DNA of 64,000 nucleotides, from positions 3 through 64,002 of the forward strand of contig DCTW01000007.1 of assembly GCA_002329465.1 (NCBI GenBank), given 5' to 3'. The stretch's first letter is position 1. Every line of letters starts with the position of its first letter. This document shows positions 4,677 through 64,000 of this stretch, one piece after another. The notes beneath the pieces were generated by a model, which worked only from the letters and a program-made list of their open reading frames with translations, made no database searches and was not told where the DNA came from. Both the position numbers and the translations under genes were made by a program. Source of the stretch: Candidatus Woesebacteria bacterium UBA1430 (GTDB lineage: Bacteria; Patescibacteriota; Microgenomatia; UBA8517).

Positions 4677-5318
4677 ATGGAAATCATCCCGGCAGTTTTG
4701 ACCTCAGATCCAAGCGAACTTAAATATTTAATAGATTTAGCTGAAGGCAATGTTAAAAAAGTGCAAATAGACATAATCGACGGGATTTTTGAAAAAAACA
4801 AAACCATTAATCCCGAAAGCCTCAAATATTTAGAAACAAGCATTTTGTTCGATATCCAATTGATGGTAAAAGAACCGATTTCTTGGACAGAAAGATGTGT
4901 CCTGGCAAACACGGACAGAATAATTGGTCACATCGAATTAATGTCAGACCAGCTTGAATTTGCAGAAAAAGTCCAAAGCCTAGGCCTAAAAATAGGTTTG
5001 GGTTTGGACCTGGATACGCCGGTAGAAAAAATATATCCTCGTTTAATTAATGATATAGATGTAATTTTGCTTATGTCCACAAAAGCGGGTTTTGGTGGAC
5101 AGAAATTTCAAGAAAAAGTGTTTGAAAAAATTAAAAAACTAAACAAAATTCGAGAAAACGACCAATCGCCATTCAAAATTTGCGTCGATGGGGGAATAAC
5201 AAAAGACCAAGCCCCCAAGCTTCAAGAGCTAAAAGTAGACGAAATTGCAGTAGGAAGGCGTCTGCTCAACGAAAATATTACCGATGAACTTAAAAGCTTC
5301 CAAAAGCTTATTTCTTAA
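4677..5318 (+). CDS. rpe: ribulose-phosphate 3-epimerase
   Basis: IDIIDG, LLMSTKAGFGGQKF and VDGGI blocks. ATG at 4677; the track start at 4671 is GTG. Confidence 0.8.
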   Translation: MEIIPAVLTSDPSELKYLIDLAEGNVKKVQIDIIDGIFEKNKTINPESLKYLETSILFDIQLMVKEPISWTERCVLANTDRIIGHIELMSDQLEFAEKVQSLGLKIGLGLDLDTPVEKIYPRLINDIDVILLMSTKAGFGGQKFQEKVFEKIKKLNKIRENDQSPFKICVDGGITKDQAPKLQELKVDEIAVGRRLLNENITDELKSFQKLIS

Positions 5319-5339
5319 TGCTAAGTGTATAATTTATTT

Positions 5340-6005
5340 ATGATCGAAGACCCAAAAAAAATTCCCGGCAAAAAATCCGTAAAGCTTACAAGGGGAATAA
5401 TTAAAAATATCGCTTTTTTTGGAGACGCAAATGTATCTAAAACGGATTCGGTATATAAAGACGCTTTTGATATAGCAAAAATTCTTGCTTCGAAAGGATT
5501 TACGATCGTAAACGGCGGCGGCCCTGGAGTAATGGACGCATCAACGCAAGGAGCCAAGGCGGCTGGTGGAGAAACAATTTCTGTTACTTTCTACCCAAAA
5601 GATGCACCGGGTTTTGAAGGAAAATACTTAGGGAACATAACGGATAAAGAAGTAGTTACAAGCAATTATATTGAAAGAATGTTTAAACTCATAGAGCACG
5701 CCGACATGTTTATAGTTTTTAAAGGCGGGAGCGGTACTGTTAGTGAATTTGGAACGGCTTGGGTATTGGCAAATATTTATTATGGGCACCATAAGCCATT
5801 TATTCTATACGGAGAATTTTGGATTGAAATAATAGATGTGCTGAGAAAAAATCTAAATATAGATAAACAGGAAATGTCTGTTTTTGAAATAGCGGCTAAA
5901 AAAGAAGACGTTTGTGCTATTATCGAAAAATTCGAAAACAAGCTTCAAAAAATGCACTCAAAAAAATACACGGAGGGAAAACGCTACACCAACAATGGCA
6001 AATAA
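5340..6005 (+). CDS. LOG-family (TIGR00730-like) nucleotide-binding protein
   Basis: NGGGPGVMDA and FKGGSGTVSEF motifs (GGGxGxM / PGGxGTxxE pattern). ATG at 5340. Confidence 0.75.
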   Translation: MIEDPKKIPGKKSVKLTRGIIKNIAFFGDANVSKTDSVYKDAFDIAKILASKGFTIVNGGGPGVMDASTQGAKAAGGETISVTFYPKDAPGFEGKYLGNITDKEVVTSNYIERMFKLIEHADMFIVFKGGSGTVSEFGTAWVLANIYYGHHKPFILYGEFWIEIIDVLRKNLNIDKQEMSVFEIAAKKEDVCAIIEKFENKLQKMHSKKYTEGKRYTNNGK

Positions 6006-25930: not shown

Positions 25931-26003
25931 GGATGCGTAGCTCAGTGGTTAGAGCACCGATCTTATAAGTCGGGGGTCGATGGTTCAAATCCATCCGCAT
26001 CCA
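25931..26003 (+). tRNA. tRNA-Ile (anticodon TAT)
   Basis: Hand-folded cloverleaf: acceptor ggatgcg/cgcatcc, D gctc/gagc, anticodon stem ccgat/gtcgg, loop ctTATaa, T gatgg-ttcaaat-ccatc. No encoded CCA. Confidence 0.85.
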
Positions 26004-26006
26004 CCT

Positions 26007-26366
26007 ATGGGTCTCGAAATCCAAAGAACATACCAGCTTGATTATCTTGCCAAACAACACAGGGTAGTATGCGACGTGGGTAGGCTAATTATGGATTGCT
26101 TTGTTGTCGATACAAATCCCAAATCACTTCCTGATTTAACTGATATAATTCAAGGCCGGATAGAAGAACACAGTCTTCAGGTAGATTCAGAAGTGCTTGT
26201 GTATGGGCGAGGTGTGTCGAATATTGTTAAAAACATTGTCTGGGATTATCTTGCATCAGGCATTCTCGACGCCGATACAAGATGGTTCTTGCATCCGGGA
26301 GAAAACTTTGCCGATGCTTTAGAAAAGATGAATAATCCTGAAGAATATATAACAAGACTCTCTTAA
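26007..26366 (+). CDS. hypothetical protein (119 aa)
   Basis: ATG at 26007 is the first start not overlapping the tRNA. No family recognised. Confidence 0.4.
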   Translation: MGLEIQRTYQLDYLAKQHRVVCDVGRLIMDCFVVDTNPKSLPDLTDIIQGRIEEHSLQVDSEVLVYGRGVSNIVKNIVWDYLASGILDADTRWFLHPGENFADALEKMNNPEEYITRLS

Positions 26367-27226
26367 AGCTCCTCAAGCTGCTGTTTTTTGCCGGGTTCTT
26401 TAATTTCGGCAAGCTCCAAATACCGCTCTGTAGTAGAAAGTCTCTTATGTCCCACAGCGTGAGATATGGTTACCAGGTCGACATTTCTTTTAAGACTTTC
26501 AACTATAAAAGTAGTTCTAAGATCATTAACGGAATATTCCGGTATTTCGGCCTTTTGCATATACCTATCAATCGCAGCGCGTATATTTCGAACAGCCAAA
26601 GGCTTCCCGTTTTTGCTGACAAAAAGATATTCGGACTTAGTGTTCGGCCTTATTCTTATATATTCTTCAATTGCAGTCAGAGCGGCTCTATTAAGTTGCA
26701 CCGTCCTTTCGGGTTGTGTGGCATAGGATTCAATAACTACGCGATCCTTTTTGATGTTGTCAAACTTTAGATTCGCAACCTCGGAAATTCTCATGCCCGT
26801 CTGGAGAATAAGCTCAACAATAGCGGCAATTCTAGGATCCGTTCTAACAACGTCCCTTAGAGCCCTATACTCAAGTTGAGACAAAAATTTTGGCAAAGAA
26901 GTCTTAATTTTAGGGTGGTCAACATTTTGTGAAGGATCGCTCGAAATAATTTTTTTATCCTTAATCCATCTAAAAAAGGTTTTTATCGCATTAAGCTTTC
27001 TGGATACGGTTTTGGGAGTGTATTTTTGATTCAATAGAAAATCGCGAAACCCCTCAAGATCACTCTGCTTAATGTGGCTTGGGAGCGCCTTGTTGTGTTG
27101 TGCAAGAAAGTCAACAAGCTGCTCAAGATCAGATTTATAGGCTAAAATCGTAGAAGGTGAACGGCCTTTTTCCTTTAAATCATCTATGAATCTTGGCAGA
27201 AGAGATTTTAGCGATTCCTCATTCAT
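26363..27226 (-). CDS. tyrosine recombinase/integrase (XerC/XerD family)
   Basis: N-terminal SAM-like domain. Catalytic ...TGMRISE... and HAVGHKRLSTTERYL (H-x-x-H ... Y) blocks. Confidence 0.85.
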   Translation of the reverse strand: MNEESLKSLLPRFIDDLKEKGRSPSTILAYKSDLEQLVDFLAQHNKALPSHIKQSDLEGFRDFLLNQKYTPKTVSRKLNAIKTFFRWIKDKKIISSDPSQNVDHPKIKTSLPKFLSQLEYRALRDVVRTDPRIAAIVELILQTGMRISEVANLKFDNIKKDRVVIESYATQPERTVQLNRAALTAIEEYIRIRPNTKSEYLFVSKNGKPLAVRNIRAAIDRYMQKAEIPEYSVNDLRTTFIVESLKRNVDLVTISHAVGHKRLSTTERYLELAEIKEPGKKQQLEEL

Positions 27227-27775: not shown

Positions 27776-27845
27776 TGCGGGGTAGTGTACGGTTGCACGG
27801 AAGGCTCATAATCTTCCAGACCGGGTTCAACTCCCGGCCCCGCAA
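27776..27845 (+). tRNA. tRNA with anticodon CAT (Met or lysidine-Ile; not initiator-like)
   Basis: Acceptor tgcgggg/ccccgca, D gtgt/gcac, anticodon stem gaagg/tcttc, loop ctCATaa, T ccggg-ttcaact-cccgg. 70 nt. Confidence 0.75.
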
Positions 27846-27849
27846 CCGA

Positions 27850-28053
27850 GCTATCAAACTCAATTCAGGAAAAAGTATTTCAACTAAATCTAGGCTACCG
27901 TTAAAACTTATCTACTATGAGGCTTACTTTCTCAAAAAAGACGCTTTTGCAAGAGAAAAATATTTAAAATCAAGTATGGGTAAAAGAGTTCTTAAAAAAC
28001 AACTCGCCAACTTTATAAAACAGGCAAAATCTGCTAAAATTCACTTTACCTAA
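27850..28053 (+). pseudogene. 5'-truncated GIY-YIG nuclease gene fragment
   Basis: The frame reads AIKLNSGKSISTKSRLPLKLIYYEAYFLKKDAFAREKYLKSSMGKRVLKK. This aligns with residues ~26-73 of the GIY-YIG ORF at 63207-63428. The GIY/YIG strands and a start codon are missing, and tRNA(CAT) occupies that position. Confidence 0.65.
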
Positions 28054-28108
28054 GGTGACTCGAATAAGCAAAGGTCAGATAGAGTCGCCGTGGGGTGGTT
28101 AAAGCCGA

Positions 28109-28181
28109 GCCAGGGTAGCTCAGTCGGCAGAGCACAGGATTCATAAACCTGCGGTCGTGGGTTCGATCCCCACCCCTGGTA
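28109..28181 (+). tRNA. tRNA with anticodon CAT (second copy, different sequence)
   Basis: Acceptor gccaggg/ccctggt (G1-U72), D gctc/gagc, anticodon loop ttCATaa, T gtggg-ttcgatc-cccac. Confidence 0.8.
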
Positions 28182-28184
28182 CCG

Positions 28185-60673: not shown

Positions 60674-60702
60674 AATTTTTAGGTTCTAATAGCGGAAGTG
60701 TG

Positions 60703-60773
60703 CTGCCCGGCAGGGATTCGAACCCCGATTAACGGCTCCAAAGGCCGCTGTCCTACCGTTAGACGACCGGGCA
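60703..60773 (-). tRNA. tRNA-Gln (anticodon TTG)
   Basis: Acceptor tgcccgg/ccgggca (U1-A72, as in bacterial tRNA-Gln), D gtc/gac, anticodon stem gcggc/gccgt, loop ctTTGga, T cgggg-ttcgaat-ccctg. Confidence 0.85.
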
Positions 60774-60810
60774 ATGTTTACGCTATTTTACCATCGAGCA
60801 CTTTTCTAAT

Positions 60811-62283
60811 CTAGTTCACAAATCCATTTAAAGGCAGAAGCTGCCCATCCTCTTGTGTGCAGACAGAAGGATCAACCTGCATTTTTTTTGGAACAATAAC
60901 TCCAATATCACCAAAAACCTTATTTACCTCATTCTCCGAAATGGTCCAAGGCCGAACAATGCTATATGTAGGGACATCGTTCCCGGGGGCTATTTGGATA
61001 ACTTTTTTCCACCAAAAAAGATAGCGGTATCCATAAGAAACGCCAAGTTCGCCGATATAATTAATACCGACGCATGGATAGTTGTTTTCCCTAACACTTT
61101 CTTTAATAAAAGTAACAGCACCAAGTTTATCTTTATATTCACCATGTACTTGTTTTTGGTTTAACGCCGAAAAGTTTATTAGAACAAAAAATCCCAAAAG
61201 AAAAACTGCCGGGGAAAAAAATCCCTTGATTCTTATTACAAACGAATAAAAAATCCCAAAAAGAGTAACGGACAAAACAATCAAATTATTAAAATAGTAT
61301 TCACTCATCGCACGTTTTGAAAAAAAGTGAACAGCAATTGTTAAAACAACCCAGGCGATAAAAATTGCTGCTTCCTCCCGTTTTATTTTTTTTAAACCCC
61401 AAAGCCCAAAAACAAGCAGGAAAAATCCTGCGAAAGAGTAGGGGAATATGCGGATATTGCTAAAAGGCTCCCGAAGCACGCGGTCTATATGCTCAATTAT
61501 CACATAGAGCTTATAATACCCGCTTCTAATCTCGGCATACTCTCCTCCGGAAGAAAAAGCCGTGGCAAGCGCATTTATCTGCCCAAACCCATGCCTTATC
61601 TCAAAAGCGATAAAAGGAGTGATAAGCAGAATAAATATGCCAAAAGAAAAATAAACCGCCCGTTTATGCGAAAAAAGGTTTTTTAGAGATCCCCGGGAAA
61701 GAAAAAACGCTAGTGGAACAAGAATCAAAAAATAAGGAATAAATGCAATATGAATATGCCAGATTAAGCCGAAAAGCACTATTAATATAGGTATCGCCCG
61801 GTAATCCTTTCGTAAAAGAATCATCAGACAATAAAAAAACCATACGCTCCAGAGAAGTGTGGGCTGAGTAGGAACAATCCATCTGTCAAGAAAGGCAATA
61901 TTCGAGCTTGCGGCATAAATAACGCTCGCCGAAATAGCGGCATCTTTTCCGTAAAGTTTTTTAATAATCCAAAAAACGCTCATCAAAGTTGCCATGGAAA
62001 TAACGGTAATTGGTATGGCAAAGGACAAAGGATTCATGCCAAAAAGCCAAAAGAAAAAAGCCATTATGTAGTAATAAATTGGACCTATAAAAAGTCCTGT
62101 AATACTCGTTTCCTGTCCGATCAGTCTAAAATGTTTGTCAACCAAAATATCCTTTGCAATAAAGGCTTGAAGATCCTGCTCATGCCCGTATCCGTAAAGC
62201 TCCTCAAATCGAAAAATTCTAAAAAACAAACCCAGCAAAATTATTACCATTAATATGTAATTTTGCCGAATCAGCTTAAACAT
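60811..62283 (-). CDS. GT-C fold membrane glycosyltransferase (ArnT/PMT, GT39-like)
   Basis: About 12 TM helices, an N-terminal loop with an acidic motif (GYGHEQD) and a C-terminal soluble domain. Confidence 0.65.
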   Translation of the reverse strand: MFKLIRQNYILMVIILLGLFFRIFRFEELYGYGHEQDLQAFIAKDILVDKHFRLIGQETSITGLFIGPIYYYIMAFFFWLFGMNPLSFAIPITVISMATLMSVFWIIKKLYGKDAAISASVIYAASSNIAFLDRWIVPTQPTLLWSVWFFYCLMILLRKDYRAIPILIVLFGLIWHIHIAFIPYFLILVPLAFFLSRGSLKNLFSHKRAVYFSFGIFILLITPFIAFEIRHGFGQINALATAFSSGGEYAEIRSGYYKLYVIIEHIDRVLREPFSNIRIFPYSFAGFFLLVFGLWGLKKIKREEAAIFIAWVVLTIAVHFFSKRAMSEYYFNNLIVLSVTLFGIFYSFVIRIKGFFSPAVFLLGFFVLINFSALNQKQVHGEYKDKLGAVTFIKESVRENNYPCVGINYIGELGVSYGYRYLFWWKKVIQIAPGNDVPTYSIVRPWTISENEVNKVFGDIGVIVPKKMQVDPSVCTQEDGQLLPLNGFVN

Positions 62284-62358
62284 AATTTTATGTTAATCCA
62301 TCAAAGTTGATTAAGCCACCCCCGCTAAGGTAAAATAGTTCTGTTCTTTAAATGAAAT

Positions 62359-62431
62359 GGGTCGCTAGCTCAATTGGCAGAGCACCAGCCTTTTAAGCTG
62401 AGGGTTCTGGGTTCGAGTCCCAGGCGACTCA
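62359..62431 (+). tRNA. tRNA-Lys (anticodon TTT)
   Basis: Acceptor gggtcgc/gcgactc, D gctc/gagc, loop ctTTTaa, T ctggg-ttcgagt-cccag. Confidence 0.85.
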
Positions 62432-62624
62432 CAATGTGCTATCATTCTTCTAAATGCCGGTTGTAGTTGTTAAAGATAAAGTCAGCAAAAAAGGCATCAG
62501 AAAGAGCGCTTACATTAAGCAATATTCTCCATGCTGCCTACAGCTAATACAAATTTATATTTTAATTCATTATCGGCAATAAAAAAACTCTTGTTTTTAC
62601 CCCATAATACCTAAATAATAAAAT

Positions 62625-63134
62625 GTGAGTCGTGAGCACTTCATTACAACAACATTTTCATTAACAGCACTCGCTCTGATAGCCTCTGCAGGCTTTGAGC
62701 AATCGGTTAGGAATGAAATATTAAAAAAAGAGCACTCGTGCGGTATATGTGGCAATCAAAAAAGCCTTACTGTGCACCATATCGTACCCGACAGCCTGGA
62801 AAACGGTAAAGATAACCAAAGCCCCAAAAATTCAATCGATCCTTATGTAAAATTTTTTCAAGAGGTGTACAAAGAAGAAATTTTGCCCATTATCCCCCCT
62901 GGCATACTTGGTGATTTTAGAAGAGCCGTAAAAAAAAGAATAAATTCACAAGCAAACGGAGTCGTCCTTTGTATGGGGTGCCATAGAAGGCTTCATCAAA
63001 ATTTTAATCCAAACTACGACAGGAATTTTTTCGATTCTGATTTGGGGTACGATCTATCAGAAGAATCTTTGGTTCAGTTTATGTTGGACAAAATCATTAA
63101 CCCGGCTCTTAGAGATCTATCACTAGATATCTAA
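62625..63134 (+). CDS. HNH endonuclease-domain protein with N-terminal hydrophobic segment
   Basis: CGICGNQKSLTVHHIVP ... NGVVLCMGCHRRLH (HNH / CxxC...CxxC). GTG start. Confidence 0.7.
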   Translation: MSREHFITTTFSLTALALIASAGFEQSVRNEILKKEHSCGICGNQKSLTVHHIVPDSLENGKDNQSPKNSIDPYVKFFQEVYKEEILPIIPPGILGDFRRAVKKRINSQANGVVLCMGCHRRLHQNFNPNYDRNFFDSDLGYDLSEESLVQFMLDKIINPALRDLSLDI

Positions 63135-63148
63135 ACGACTTAGCTAAG

Positions 63149-63221
63149 TGACCCCACCGGGATTCGAACCCGGGTTTGCGGGATGAAAGCCCGCTGTCCT
63201 AGTCCCCTAGACGATGGGGCC
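63149..63221 (-). tRNA. tRNA-Glu (anticodon TTC)
   Basis: Acceptor ggcccca/tggggtc, D gtct/ggac, anticodon stem gcggg/cccgc, loop ctTTCat, 4-nt variable loop, T ccggg-ttcgaat-cccgg. The layout parallels E. coli tRNA-Glu. Confidence 0.85.
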
Positions 63222-63428
63222 AAGTCTTTTCAATACCTCCTCTTCTCTTTTTATTGCGGCGGTTTTTAATATATACGCTTCATAGTATATCAAATTGTAG
63301 GGAGCTTTTGTCTTTGTATATCTTGATCTAAGTTTATTATGTTGTTTAATTCTTTTCTTAAGATCACTGGTATAACCTACATAAGTCGAGTTATCTTGGC
63401 TGCTTTTAATAAAGTAAACGTAATACAT
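63207..63428 (-). CDS. GIY-YIG nuclease-domain protein (73 aa), with its 3' end inside tRNA-Glu
   Basis: MYYVYFIKSSQDNSTYVGYTSDLKKRIKQHN...LIYYEAY... (GIY / YIG / R / H-N pattern). The last 5 codons and the TAG stop lie within the tRNA acceptor/D arm. Confidence 0.75.
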   Translation of the reverse strand: MYYVYFIKSSQDNSTYVGYTSDLKKRIKQHNKLRSRYTKTKAPYNLIYYEAYILKTAAIKREEEVLKRLGPIV

Positions 63429-63442
63429 TCAGTAGGCTATAA

Positions 63443-63480
63443 ATGAAAGCCCGCTGTCCTAGTCCCCTAGACGATGGGGC
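63443..63480 (-). repeat. orphan copy of the tRNA-Glu 5' half (positions 2 to end of anticodon loop), identical to 63183-63220
   Basis: 38/38 identity read directly: atgaaagcccgctgtcctagtcccctagacgatggggc occurs at both sites in the same orientation, 260 bp apart. Confidence 0.9.
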
Positions 63481-63493
63481 TGTTTTATCACCC

Positions 63494-63523
63494 TTGAAAC
63501 AATATTGCACACTCTGATATAAT
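63494..63523 (+). promoter_or_regulatory. candidate rRNA operon promoter
   Basis: TTGAAA (63494-63499), an 18-nt spacer, then TGaTATAAT (63515-63523), about 140 nt upstream of the 16S 5' end. Confidence 0.5.
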
Positions 63524-63663
63524 ACCTCCACTACAAAGTTAACTTCCCTCTCCTTTTGGAGAAAGAAGGGGGTAACAACTCCAGGTAGAAAATTGAACCT
63601 TGACAATCAACTAACGTCTGAAAGCAACTTTGGGCGCTTCTTGCTTTTTAGCAAGATTCGTCA

Positions 63664-64000
63664 CTTTTTGAGGGTTTGATCCTGGCCCAGGGTGAACGCT
63701 GGCGGCGTGCATTAGGCATGCAAGTGGAACGGACGCGACTCGCAAGAGTTGCGTCAGTCGCGAACGGCTGAGTAACGGGTAGGAATCTACCCCTTGGTGG
63801 GGAATACCTCCGCGAAAGCGGGGTTAATACCGCATAAACTCGTGCATAGCACGAGGAAATTCCAATTAACAAATTCCAAATAAATCTAAAATTTTAATTT
63901 TCTAAACTCAAAACATTTTGAATTTAGGATTTAAACATTAATTATTGTTTGCAATTTGGTGCTTGAAATTTGGGATTTTCTCTTGCTATGCAAGAGTAAA
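63664..64000 (+). rRNA. rrs: 16S rRNA gene, 5' part (runs off window)
   Basis: tttgagggtttgatcctggcccagggtgaacgctggcggcgtg matches the universal 16S 5' end (GTTTGATCCTGGCTCAG ... AACGCTGGCGG). The ...taataccgcataa block follows. Confidence 0.9.
63858..63978 (+). other. AT-rich insertion (intervening sequence) within the 16S rRNA gene
   Basis: An abrupt shift occurs after ...ctcgtgcatagcacgaggaa. Hand count is 19 G+C in the 100 nt 63861-63960, against 36 G+C in the 60 nt 63721-63780. The 3' boundary is uncertain or beyond the window. Confidence 0.55.

Follow-up and report, generated by a model that had tools for sequence, protein, structure and literature searches.

GIY-YIG insertion sequences have been reported from ribosomal RNA (rRNA) genes of the Candidate Phyla Radiation (CPR) (Brown et al. 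2015; Tsurumaki et al. 2024, PMC11270868), and they share their protein type and host group with the element described here: a small GIY-YIG open reading frame (ORF) lying against the transfer RNA (tRNA) gene tRNA-Glu(UUC) in contig DCTW01000007.1 of Candidatus Woesebacteria bacterium UBA1430, of which we analysed one stretch of 64,000 nt, henceforth the window. Neither kind of insert is a group I or group II intron, and both lie in stable-RNA genes, on the strand of the gene. However, the work on the rRNA inserts (PMC11270868) makes no mention of hosts such as tRNA, transfer-messenger RNA (tmRNA) or ribonuclease P (RNase P) RNA, of direct repeats of the host gene or of inverted repeats. Since an insert cannot stay in a mature tRNA, the tRNA gene is here partly duplicated instead, unlike in the rRNA inserts. 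A further likeness is found in phage T4 SegB (PMC2330249), a free-standing homing endonuclease encoded by a GIY-YIG gene between tRNA genes that is co-inherited with the flanking tRNA markers by break repair and with no intron. That said, the Seg proteins exceed 200 aa and carry DNA-binding domains, whereas the proteins here have 80-90 aa and consist of the catalytic domain only; also, partial duplications of tRNA are not reported for SegB. In fungal mitochondria, mobile ORFs (the Glomus mORFs; Beaudet et al. 2013, PMC3630166) bring an endonuclease ORF to a gene's end along with a new copy of the terminal segment, which takes the place of the old one and leaves it behind as a displaced remnant. 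There, as in the cassettes discussed here, function is preserved by duplication and not by splicing, and in this sense they are the closest analogue in logic. A mobile endonuclease ORF with a duplicated end of its host gene is reportedly also present in Allomyces atp6, as Paquin et al. are said to have found in 1994. The fungal cases, however, concern the 3' ends of protein-coding genes, whereas here it is the 5' end of a bacterial tRNA, and the hosts and endonuclease subfamilies differ.

Integrase islands and prophages in tRNA genes (PMC9897764) span 9-120 kb, carry an integrase of the tyrosine or serine type and, as a rule, duplicate the tRNA's 3' part, whereas the insert here is a 222-nt ORF with no adjacent integrase and with the 5' part duplicated. 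In a stem-enclosed intervening sequence (IVS), a long inverted repeat surrounds the insert in the RNA gene; the copy at tRNA-Glu (copy 1) has no significant one, whereas 32 of 75 relatives do. Distinct from these cassettes are also the group I introns known from tRNAs of Patescibacteria (PMC13011429). As for the protein itself, the UPF0213/Slx1-like standalone group (E. coli YhbQ type; 1zg2, 1ywl; PMC1564403) comprises a minimal GIY-YIG domain without the C-terminal Asn typical of UvrC and I-TevI, and while each characterised member is a chromosomal gene present once, those studied here are multi-copy and polymorphic and sit within RNA genes. Both free-standing endonuclease cassettes and intervening sequences of stable-RNA genes are already known kinds of element. 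The window copy, in turn, is a degraded example of a recurrent arrangement that is apparently undescribed, and we found no description of bacterial GIY-YIG cassettes with tRNA duplications in the open-access literature.

Our analysis establishes that the family to which this ORF belongs is tightly and directionally linked to stable-RNA genes, that its cassettes come and go between near-identical strains, that a repeated 5' segment of the tRNA typically brackets those at tRNA genes, and that its copies decay by deletion. The window ORF is probably a degraded copy of a widespread Slx1-like/UPF0213 GIY-YIG family of 80-90 aa, and the evidence as a whole suggests that these mini GIY-YIG cassettes are selfish elements in or against tRNA, tmRNA, RNase P RNA, 16S and 23S genes. 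In particular, with a probability of roughly 60%, we would read the tRNA-Glu locus as a decaying cassette of the homing type, for which tRNA genes would serve as homology arms and whose host tRNA would be kept functional by duplication instead of splicing, the mechanism itself being inferred. The parts of the locus, given as positions in the window with the tRNA-Glu unit read on the minus strand, are as follows.

63443..63480, minus strand: orphan copy of tRNA-Glu(UUC) positions 2-38, the upstream repeat arm; identical to 63183-63220, without counterpart in the 92-94% identical relative (L085/L086)
63429..63442, minus strand: leader of 14 nt, ttatagcctactga, from the orphan fragment to the ATG; sequence reading
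63207..63428, minus strand: GIY-YIG ORF of 73 aa, C-terminally truncated, probably of UPF0213/Slx1-like standalone type; Pfam PF01541
63284..63292, minus strand: TGATATACT, extended -10-like motif within the conserved LIYYE codons; sequence reading
63149..63221, minus strand: intact tRNA-Glu(UUC), holding the downstream repeat arm 63183-63220; ARAGORN and Rfam, identical to the tRNA-Glu of L085/L086

An earlier reading of the bare sequence, which we call the original prediction, had proposed that a perfect 38-nt duplication of the tRNA-Glu(UUC) 5' half brackets a 73-codon GIY-YIG ORF, and the repeat search bore this out: one direct repeat of 38 nt and 100% identity was found (63183-63220 and 63443-63480, spaced 260 nt), for which we calculate a chance expectation in 64 kb of approximately 3e-14. 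On the minus strand, the orphan fragment (63480-63443) is followed by the leader, the ORF (63428-63207) and the tRNA-Glu gene (63221-63149). The repeat corresponds to tRNA positions 2-38, with its last base being the last base of the anticodon loop, while the base preceding the orphan fragment is A, as opposed to G1 in the tRNA-Glu gene. The complete tRNA-Glu, likewise predicted, is called by both ARAGORN, as tRNA-Glu(ttc) at 63148-63221(-), and Rfam, as tRNA at 63149-63221(-), and neither program calls a tRNA at the upstream 38-nt copy. The ORF had been thought to take its last five codons, LGPIV, and its TAG stop from the tRNA; this holds for G-P-I-V and the stop, which are tRNA-Glu positions 1-15, but not for the preceding Leu codon, which lies upstream of tRNA +1. 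The view that neither a group I intron nor an integrase island is involved also stands: the 260-nt insert between the repeats is nearly all ORF, the tRNA-Glu itself is uninterrupted, Rfam at the gathering threshold finds no Intron_gpI in the window, there is no integrase gene between the 38-nt repeats, and it is the 5' part that is duplicated. The 14-nt leader shows no hairpin and no inverted repeat, and an inverted-repeat test for copy 1 as a whole was not significant.

The junctions can be judged against public assemblies. Namely, through the exact HNH protein of the neighbouring ORF (62625-63134) we located a Logan contig, L092, which is present in 7 samples, is 99.92% identical to window positions 60702-63212 and terminates at 63212. 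The first 31-mer common to both repeat copies starts at 63183, and in a Logan graph, whose k we take to be 31, a unitig coming from the 3' side of the tRNA is predicted to stop at 63212. In other words, the end of L092 matches the break expected from the 38-nt repeat if both repeat contexts are present in the 7 samples.

How would a tRNA gene in this position be transcribed? A sigma-70 consensus scan of the coding strand found no full site upstream of the orphan fragment or between it and tRNA-Glu, the sole match of the consensus promoter scan being the divergent rRNA promoter at 63494-63523(+). The LIYYE codons (TTGATATACTAT) hold an extended -10-like TGnTATACT in the window and in the relative genome alike, the latter carrying TGGTATACT at the corresponding place of its 47-nt tRNA leader, and, judging by the motif, this could possibly be an internal promoter of tRNA-Glu. 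The tRNA-Glu gene appears to depend on transcription through the decaying nuclease gene. Folding of the whole orphan-ORF-tRNA co-transcript gave no significant structure (z=-1.7).

The GIY-YIG identity of the ORF, as originally predicted, is clear from its match to Pfam PF01541 (E=1.1e-16; 61.3 bits, the curated cut-off being 22.6; positions 1-73 of the 78-position profile). The motif residues (GIY-type Tyr, YIG-type Tyr/Gly, Arg, His/Asn and the catalytic Glu) are kept, namely Y2-Y5, Y16, G18, R26, H30, N31 and E62, all of them falling in invariant or near-invariant columns of the alignment, and the consensus of the family reads MYYVY..YVGYT.DLKKR..EHN.G...STK...P..LIYYEA....DA..RE..LK...G...LK..L. 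The full-length relatives have 80-90 aa, and a UPF0213-type protein would be a single domain of about 85-100 aa; with its 73 aa, the window protein is without the last ~15 aa of its relatives, and the alignment agrees with the earlier view that the C-terminus is cut at the junction with the tRNA, which shortens the ORF. When compared with the PDB, the family profile matched 1zg2 (E=2.9e-14), 1ywl (3.5e-08) and then SLX1, which puts the family with the minimal GIY-YIG proteins that Dunin-Horkawicz et al. (2006, PMC1564403) grouped as Slx1-like standalone. NCBIfam holds no specific model for these proteins; in the relatives of 80-90 aa, no DNA-binding module was found, with only PF01541 or overlapping GIY-type Pfam matches present; and exact-sequence look-ups of the window GIY-YIG protein and of the window glycosyltransferase gave no match. 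The relatives come mostly from metagenome-assembled genomes of Patescibacteria/CPR, and also from Omnitrophota, Verrucomicrobiota, Planctomycetota and further phyla.

Is the position of this ORF a peculiarity of one contig? To the contrary, the layout of a tRNA 5' fragment, a GIY-YIG gene and an intact tRNA recurs across many unrelated genomes and tRNA types, in keeping with the original proposal, by which a small GIY-YIG cassette, on recombining with a tRNA gene, doubled the 5' part of that gene. We surveyed 80 loci of mini GIY-YIG relatives from species-representative genomes, selected by peptide patterns only; the search for loci was based on an alignment of 12 sequences, an alignment of 25 being too diverse. 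A tRNA on the same strand starts between -60 and +150 nt from the stop codon in 25 of 76 assessable loci, often 1-26 nt away, whereas the far flanks of the same loci give an expected rate of 1.7%, so that the predicted enrichment of GIY genes at tRNA genes is found; opposite-strand tRNAs in the same interval number 0 of 76. In a further 18 of 78 loci, a same-strand tRNA ends at most 350 nt upstream. The tRNAs concerned span many isoacceptors. Beyond tRNAs, Rfam places GIY copies, in every case co-oriented with the RNA gene, within RNase P RNA (L011) or its 5' part (L046, L049, L067, L071), and inside 23S (L020, L048, L065) and 16S (L005, L077) genes, the last two groups being cases of the CPR rRNA inserts recovered here too, while in five loci (L019, L023, L060, L061, L066) the ORF lies 100-150 nt downstream of a same-strand tmRNA. 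Altogether, 56 of the 80 loci are in or beside a stable-RNA gene. What is more, clusters of GIY proteins follow the target RNA across host taxa (Ser in six cases, Glu in three, Cys and Met in two each, plus RNase P and tmRNA groups).

At least 13 cassettes carry a direct repeat of their tRNA (L002, L004, L007, L014, L017, L026, L029, L033, L034, L038, L057, L064 and L076): when the 200 nt preceding the ATG were compared locally with the downstream tRNA, the best match in each of them beat 100 of 100 shuffles. These repeats begin between tRNA -12 and +1 and end between +7 and +71, most commonly at +10 to +13. In this light, the end of the repeat at the anticodon-loop boundary, which the original prediction had linked to the canonical intron and split-tRNA position, is real in the window but not general, and the link is probably incidental. 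Two loci, L029 and L034, additionally have the matching 3' remnant of the tRNA downstream of the intact copy. The significant inverted repeats that enclose the ORF in 32 of 75 loci have the form CCCCxCAC...GTGxGGGG, and where the locus is a tRNA, the right arm ends in Gs that belong to the tRNA itself (+1 to +3/4); several relatives enclosed in this way sit inside RNase P RNA or rRNA. Repeats of the RNA 3' end bracketing those cassettes that lie downstream of a tRNA or tmRNA are clear in L059 only, with L061 and L072 weaker, and are not a general feature.

Several further observations were made at the surveyed loci. The GIY proteins linked to tmRNA fall into two clusters, which are common to cassettes downstream of tRNA-Asp and tRNA-Ala. 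Several lineages have two short GC-rich hairpins (e.g. TCCGCCCAAGGCGGA plus TCAGCCTAGGGCTGA) between orphan fragment and ATG, at tRNA-Ser (L024, L062, L064, L078, L034), tRNA-Glu (L017, L036, L038) and tRNA-Cys (L029), and in L078 the double hairpin flanks the ORF on both sides. Some orphan tRNA copies are long and have their anticodon arm interrupted or replaced by palindromic inserts (L076 1853-1984; L029 1902-1979 and 2340-2440; L002 1832-1978 and 2236-2300; L053 200-340 and 670-732), the insert of L076 lying at anticodon 35/36 and measuring 77 nt, that of L029 lying at 33/34 and measuring 30 nt. Such orphan fragments stand in tandem in L002, L029 and L053, and tRNA genes are found between two divergent GIY genes, or in serial one-strand units of GIY gene and tRNA, in L076 (2001-2243, 2247-2324, 2380-2640), L033 (1531-2457) and L007 (52-389, 2001-2337). 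In eight loci from Verrucomicrobiota (L040, L047, L051, L056, L058, L068, L074, L079), the GIY ORFs are not beside RNA genes; copies of a palindrome, CCGCGTAAAAGGCTTCGCCTCACGCGG, resembling repetitive extragenic palindromic (REP) sequences stand there some 20-50 nt before the ATG and after the stop, several of these loci have two GIY copies, and the proteins form a separate cluster. Matches to group I intron ribozymes lie within a few kb of GIY cassettes in L030 (327-563), L042 (1484-1734) and L065 (3662-3825), one of them sharing the same 23S gene with a cassette, which indicates that these RNA genes gather several kinds of insert.

The window holds a second GIY-YIG remnant at about 27862-28053(+), detected by tblastn, alignment and a weak Pfam match, in which the C-terminal ~63 codons are kept and the first ~27 are gone. 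The two window copies are 39% identical to each other in amino acid sequence. This second copy (copy 2) lies in a polymorphic segment between two tRNA-Met genes, the features and alleles of which are given below.

27776..27847, plus strand: tRNA-Met(CAT) #1, left boundary of the polymorphic remnant; ARAGORN and Rfam, strain alleles diverge directly past its 3' end
27848..28108, plus strand: long spacer allele, consisting of a 14-nt foreign tRNA trailer, the N-truncated GIY-YIG remnant and a 55-nt spacer; tblastn, alignment, weak Pfam match
28109..28183, plus strand: tRNA-Met(CAT) #2, right boundary of the polymorphic segment; ARAGORN and Rfam, contigs L091, L097 and L098 begin at its +1
Spacer of 262 nt with the remnant: window and L096 (L096 flank identity 100%)
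Unrelated spacer of 34 nt: L088, L089, L090 and L095 (L088 flanks 99.7-99.8% identical to the window; the others share the same 34-nt spacer)
Same 34-nt spacer with one substitution: L093 and L094 (flanks 91-95% identical to the window)

The presence or absence of copy 2 therefore differs among strains that are 99.7-100% identical. The independent assembly L096 agrees with the window at 5741 of 5741 positions, remnant included, and the difference between alleles runs from just after tRNA-Met #1 to exactly +1 of tRNA-Met #2, where three Logan contigs (L091, L097, L098) begin, indicating a branch of the graph at that point. As the short allele is common to the 91-95% relative, it is the ancestral one, and the long allele is a recent acquisition. 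In the long allele, tRNA-Met #1 is followed by 14 nt that match the trailers of tRNA-Met in L035 and L072, loci where a full-length GIY gene of the same protein cluster lies 124-139 nt downstream; from this comparison, positions 27848-27861 are tRNA trailer, and a start of the GIY homology of copy 2 at 27850 was rejected. The long allele is most simply read as the import, from an L035/L072-like lineage, of a cassette allele that already bore its deletion, with crossovers within the conserved tRNA genes. A XerC/D-like tyrosine recombinase (26363-27226(-), Pfam Phage_integrase E=3.5e-29), adjoining tRNA-Ile(tat) at 25931-26005, lies about 550 nt from the tRNA-Met/GIY remnant and is the only integrase-like gene of the window; since it is also kept in strains without the remnant, it seems not to be linked to it.

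A close relative allows the tRNA-Glu site itself to be compared. Over window positions 60700-63860, identity is 92-94% for both the complete genome CP055307.1 (L085) and a Logan contig, L086, which have the same tRNA-Glu, but neither the orphan fragment nor the ORF; between the shared upstream flank (...GTGATTAAAACA) and tRNA +1 there are 47 nt. The 47-56 nt leader of the relative aligns colinearly with two interior blocks of the window ORF, its AACATCAT..TTAGATTAAG matching window 63343-63322 and its TTTGGTATACTAT... matching the window from 63294 onward, with a score reached by 20 of 2000 shuffles (p ~0.01). We have consequently rejected the relative's site as a naive empty site, and its tRNA-Glu leader is, from this alignment, probably the scar of a further-decayed cassette. 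The only loci from a metagenome scan with tRNA-Glu, four in number, were also rejected as empty sites, as they belong to another lineage, have unrelated flanks and contain no GIY gene.

How would such a cassette spread without destroying its host gene? Because a tRNA is intolerant of an unspliced insert, only those arrangements survive in which an intact tRNA comes right after the cassette, with the duplicated 5' piece upstream. In the mechanism we propose, a naive tRNA gene would be broken and then repaired from a cassette-bearing copy, with the orphan 5' fragment supplying a homology or annealing arm on the left and the intact tRNA supplying the arm on the right; gap repair would then copy the cassette together with a second 5' segment, thereby restoring an intact tRNA, a role equal to that of splicing for introns. 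With conserved tRNA sequence as arms, transfer could take place between diverged lineages with no need for conserved synteny. Cassette and tRNA would be co-transcribed and the tRNA freed by RNase P. In the window, the RNase P cut at tRNA +1 would also take the stop codon off the ORF mRNA, and the truncated protein is for this reason probably poorly made. Decay of a cassette would proceed by deletion down to the tRNA boundaries, costing copy 1 its C-terminal ~15 codons and any flanking inverted repeat, and copy 2 its first ~27 codons.

It should still be noted that several points weigh against this picture. A catalytic domain alone, without an obvious DNA-binding module, is unusual for a site-specific homing enzyme, and the family has no known nuclease activity or cleavage site; moreover, copy 1, lacking inverted repeats and its C-terminus, may be inactive. 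Arms of 10-13 nt are short for homologous repair, so that microhomology annealing must be assumed, and, with the intact tRNA still holding the repeat-boundary region, the escape of the cassette-bearing allele from re-cutting is unexplained. The tRNA-Glu site is compatible with gain in the window lineage or with loss in the relative. Finally, insertion at a staggered cut, integration of a circle, or arrival of a cassette with a whole tRNA followed by loss of the tandem 3' remnant would give the same end product.

One can argue, for instance, that these are transposon-like elements bounded by terminal inverted repeats CCCCxCAC...GTGxGGGG, whose staggered cut would leave a target-site duplication of about 10-13 bp that by chance falls on the tRNA 5' end. 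The highly significant inverted repeats, the commonest direct-repeat length of 10-13 nt and an identical left end, CCCTCACCCAGA, at different tRNAs of different organisms (L026, L057) would all fit such a process. However, we consider it unlikely, given that repeat lengths from 7 to 71 nt, with 38 nt in the window, are far too variable for a fixed stagger, and that the right inverted repeat extends over tRNA +1 to +4 and in three loci (L057, L064 and L017) also shares bases with the direct repeat, meaning that the direct repeat is not purely target sequence. In addition, copies within one genome are very divergent, as in the 39% identical window pair, which speaks against recent intragenomic transposition, the window copy has no inverted repeats, and we know of no bacterial GIY-YIG transposase. 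Campbell-type cycling, in which recombination between the repeats excises a 260-bp circle (tRNA 5' half plus ORF) that re-integrates into any tRNA-Glu by host homologous recombination within the 38-nt homology and without site-specific cleavage, strikes us as distinctly unlikely. Its integration product would be exactly the arrangement seen, a 5' part, the insert and then the 5' part with the rest of the tRNA, and it draws further strength from the 100% identity of the repeat copies and from the tRNA-Met polymorphism, which shows recombination within tRNA genes. Still, the native leader should then remain upstream of the orphan fragment, where the relative's 47 nt are not found in the window, and neither the truncation of the ORF exactly at tRNA +1, nor the short 7-13 nt repeats of most loci, nor the repeat-free copies inside rRNA and RNase P RNA are accounted for.

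A non-mobile origin is improbable in our estimation: the mini GIY-YIG protein would be a host factor for the expression or processing of stable RNA, kept in tRNA operons, and the tRNA fragments by-products of duplication and deletion in tRNA arrays. Such a function would agree with the way these genes strictly share the orientation of nearby tRNA, tmRNA and RNase P genes and lie close to them, which suggests co-transcription, and with the ties that Dunin-Horkawicz et al. (2006, PMC1564403) noted between Slx1-like prokaryotic nucleases and tRNA methyltransferases, through a TrmH fusion and neighbours of the COG4123 type. But presence and absence differ between near-identical strains, both window copies are truncated, genomes hold multiple divergent copies, some copies lie inside rRNA and RNase P RNA genes, and protein lineages track the type of target and not the host, all of which a selfish element fits better than a housekeeping gene. 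As to an artefact of assembly, with repeat and junctions arising from misjoined reads of two strains, the window does come from a metagenome assembly, and the contigs of this population do break at tRNA genes. Nevertheless, L092 stops at exactly the base predicted if both 38-mer contexts occur in its 7 samples, every genome needs the intact tRNA, so that both junctions most simply lie in one genome, an independent assembly (L096) has the second remnant with every base the same, and the same architecture is found in many independent assemblies; an artefact is hence scarcely credible.

Going beyond the decaying homing cassette at tRNA-Glu, one may ask what kind of element the family as a whole represents. 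Our tentative answer, to which we would give somewhat less than even odds, is that mini GIY-YIG cassettes may form an undescribed selfish class specialised on stable-RNA genes, residing at helix tips in rRNA and RNase P RNA and, in tRNA, substituting a kind of "exon duplication" for splicing, where the 5' segment would be both a scar and a homology arm for homing into any genome with that tRNA. On this account, tRNA genes would offer portable sites at which cassettes land as they spread horizontally, and what is left of a cassette could find new use as a leader or promoter of a tRNA gene.

Other features of the window near tRNA-Glu are as follows. The 16S rRNA gene starts at 63664(+), and Rfam aligns 337 nt of it (63664-64000) to model positions 1-205, an insertion beginning near 63860, at about rRNA position 195-205, and running off the window end. 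The 16S of the relative (L085 3392-4921) has 1530 nt without the insertion, and its alignment to the window ends at 63859. The insert holds two hairpins, ctcgtgcatagcacgag and ctcttgctatgcaagag, and a GIY cassette occupies a similar 16S position in L077. The HNH-domain ORF (169 aa, 62625-63134(+)) lies between tRNA-Lys (62359-62432) and tRNA-Glu, is convergent with the tRNA-Glu unit and is conserved in this position in Logan contigs and, at 5239-5745, in L085, the 92-94% relative.

If the interpretation of the tRNA-Glu locus as a decaying homing cassette is true, partial duplication of the gene would be a third route by which a selfish insert in an essential RNA gene is made harmless, next to the already known routes of self-splicing and RNase III-type excision. 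It would give a concrete, testable lead on the function of the widespread, uncharacterised GIY-YIG proteins of the UPF0213/YhbQ type, as well as a source for orphan tRNA fragments, which annotation pipelines now ascribe only to integrases or CRISPR. Finally, it suggests that conserved tRNA genes are recombination anchors that move small cassettes between diverged bacteria with reduced genomes.

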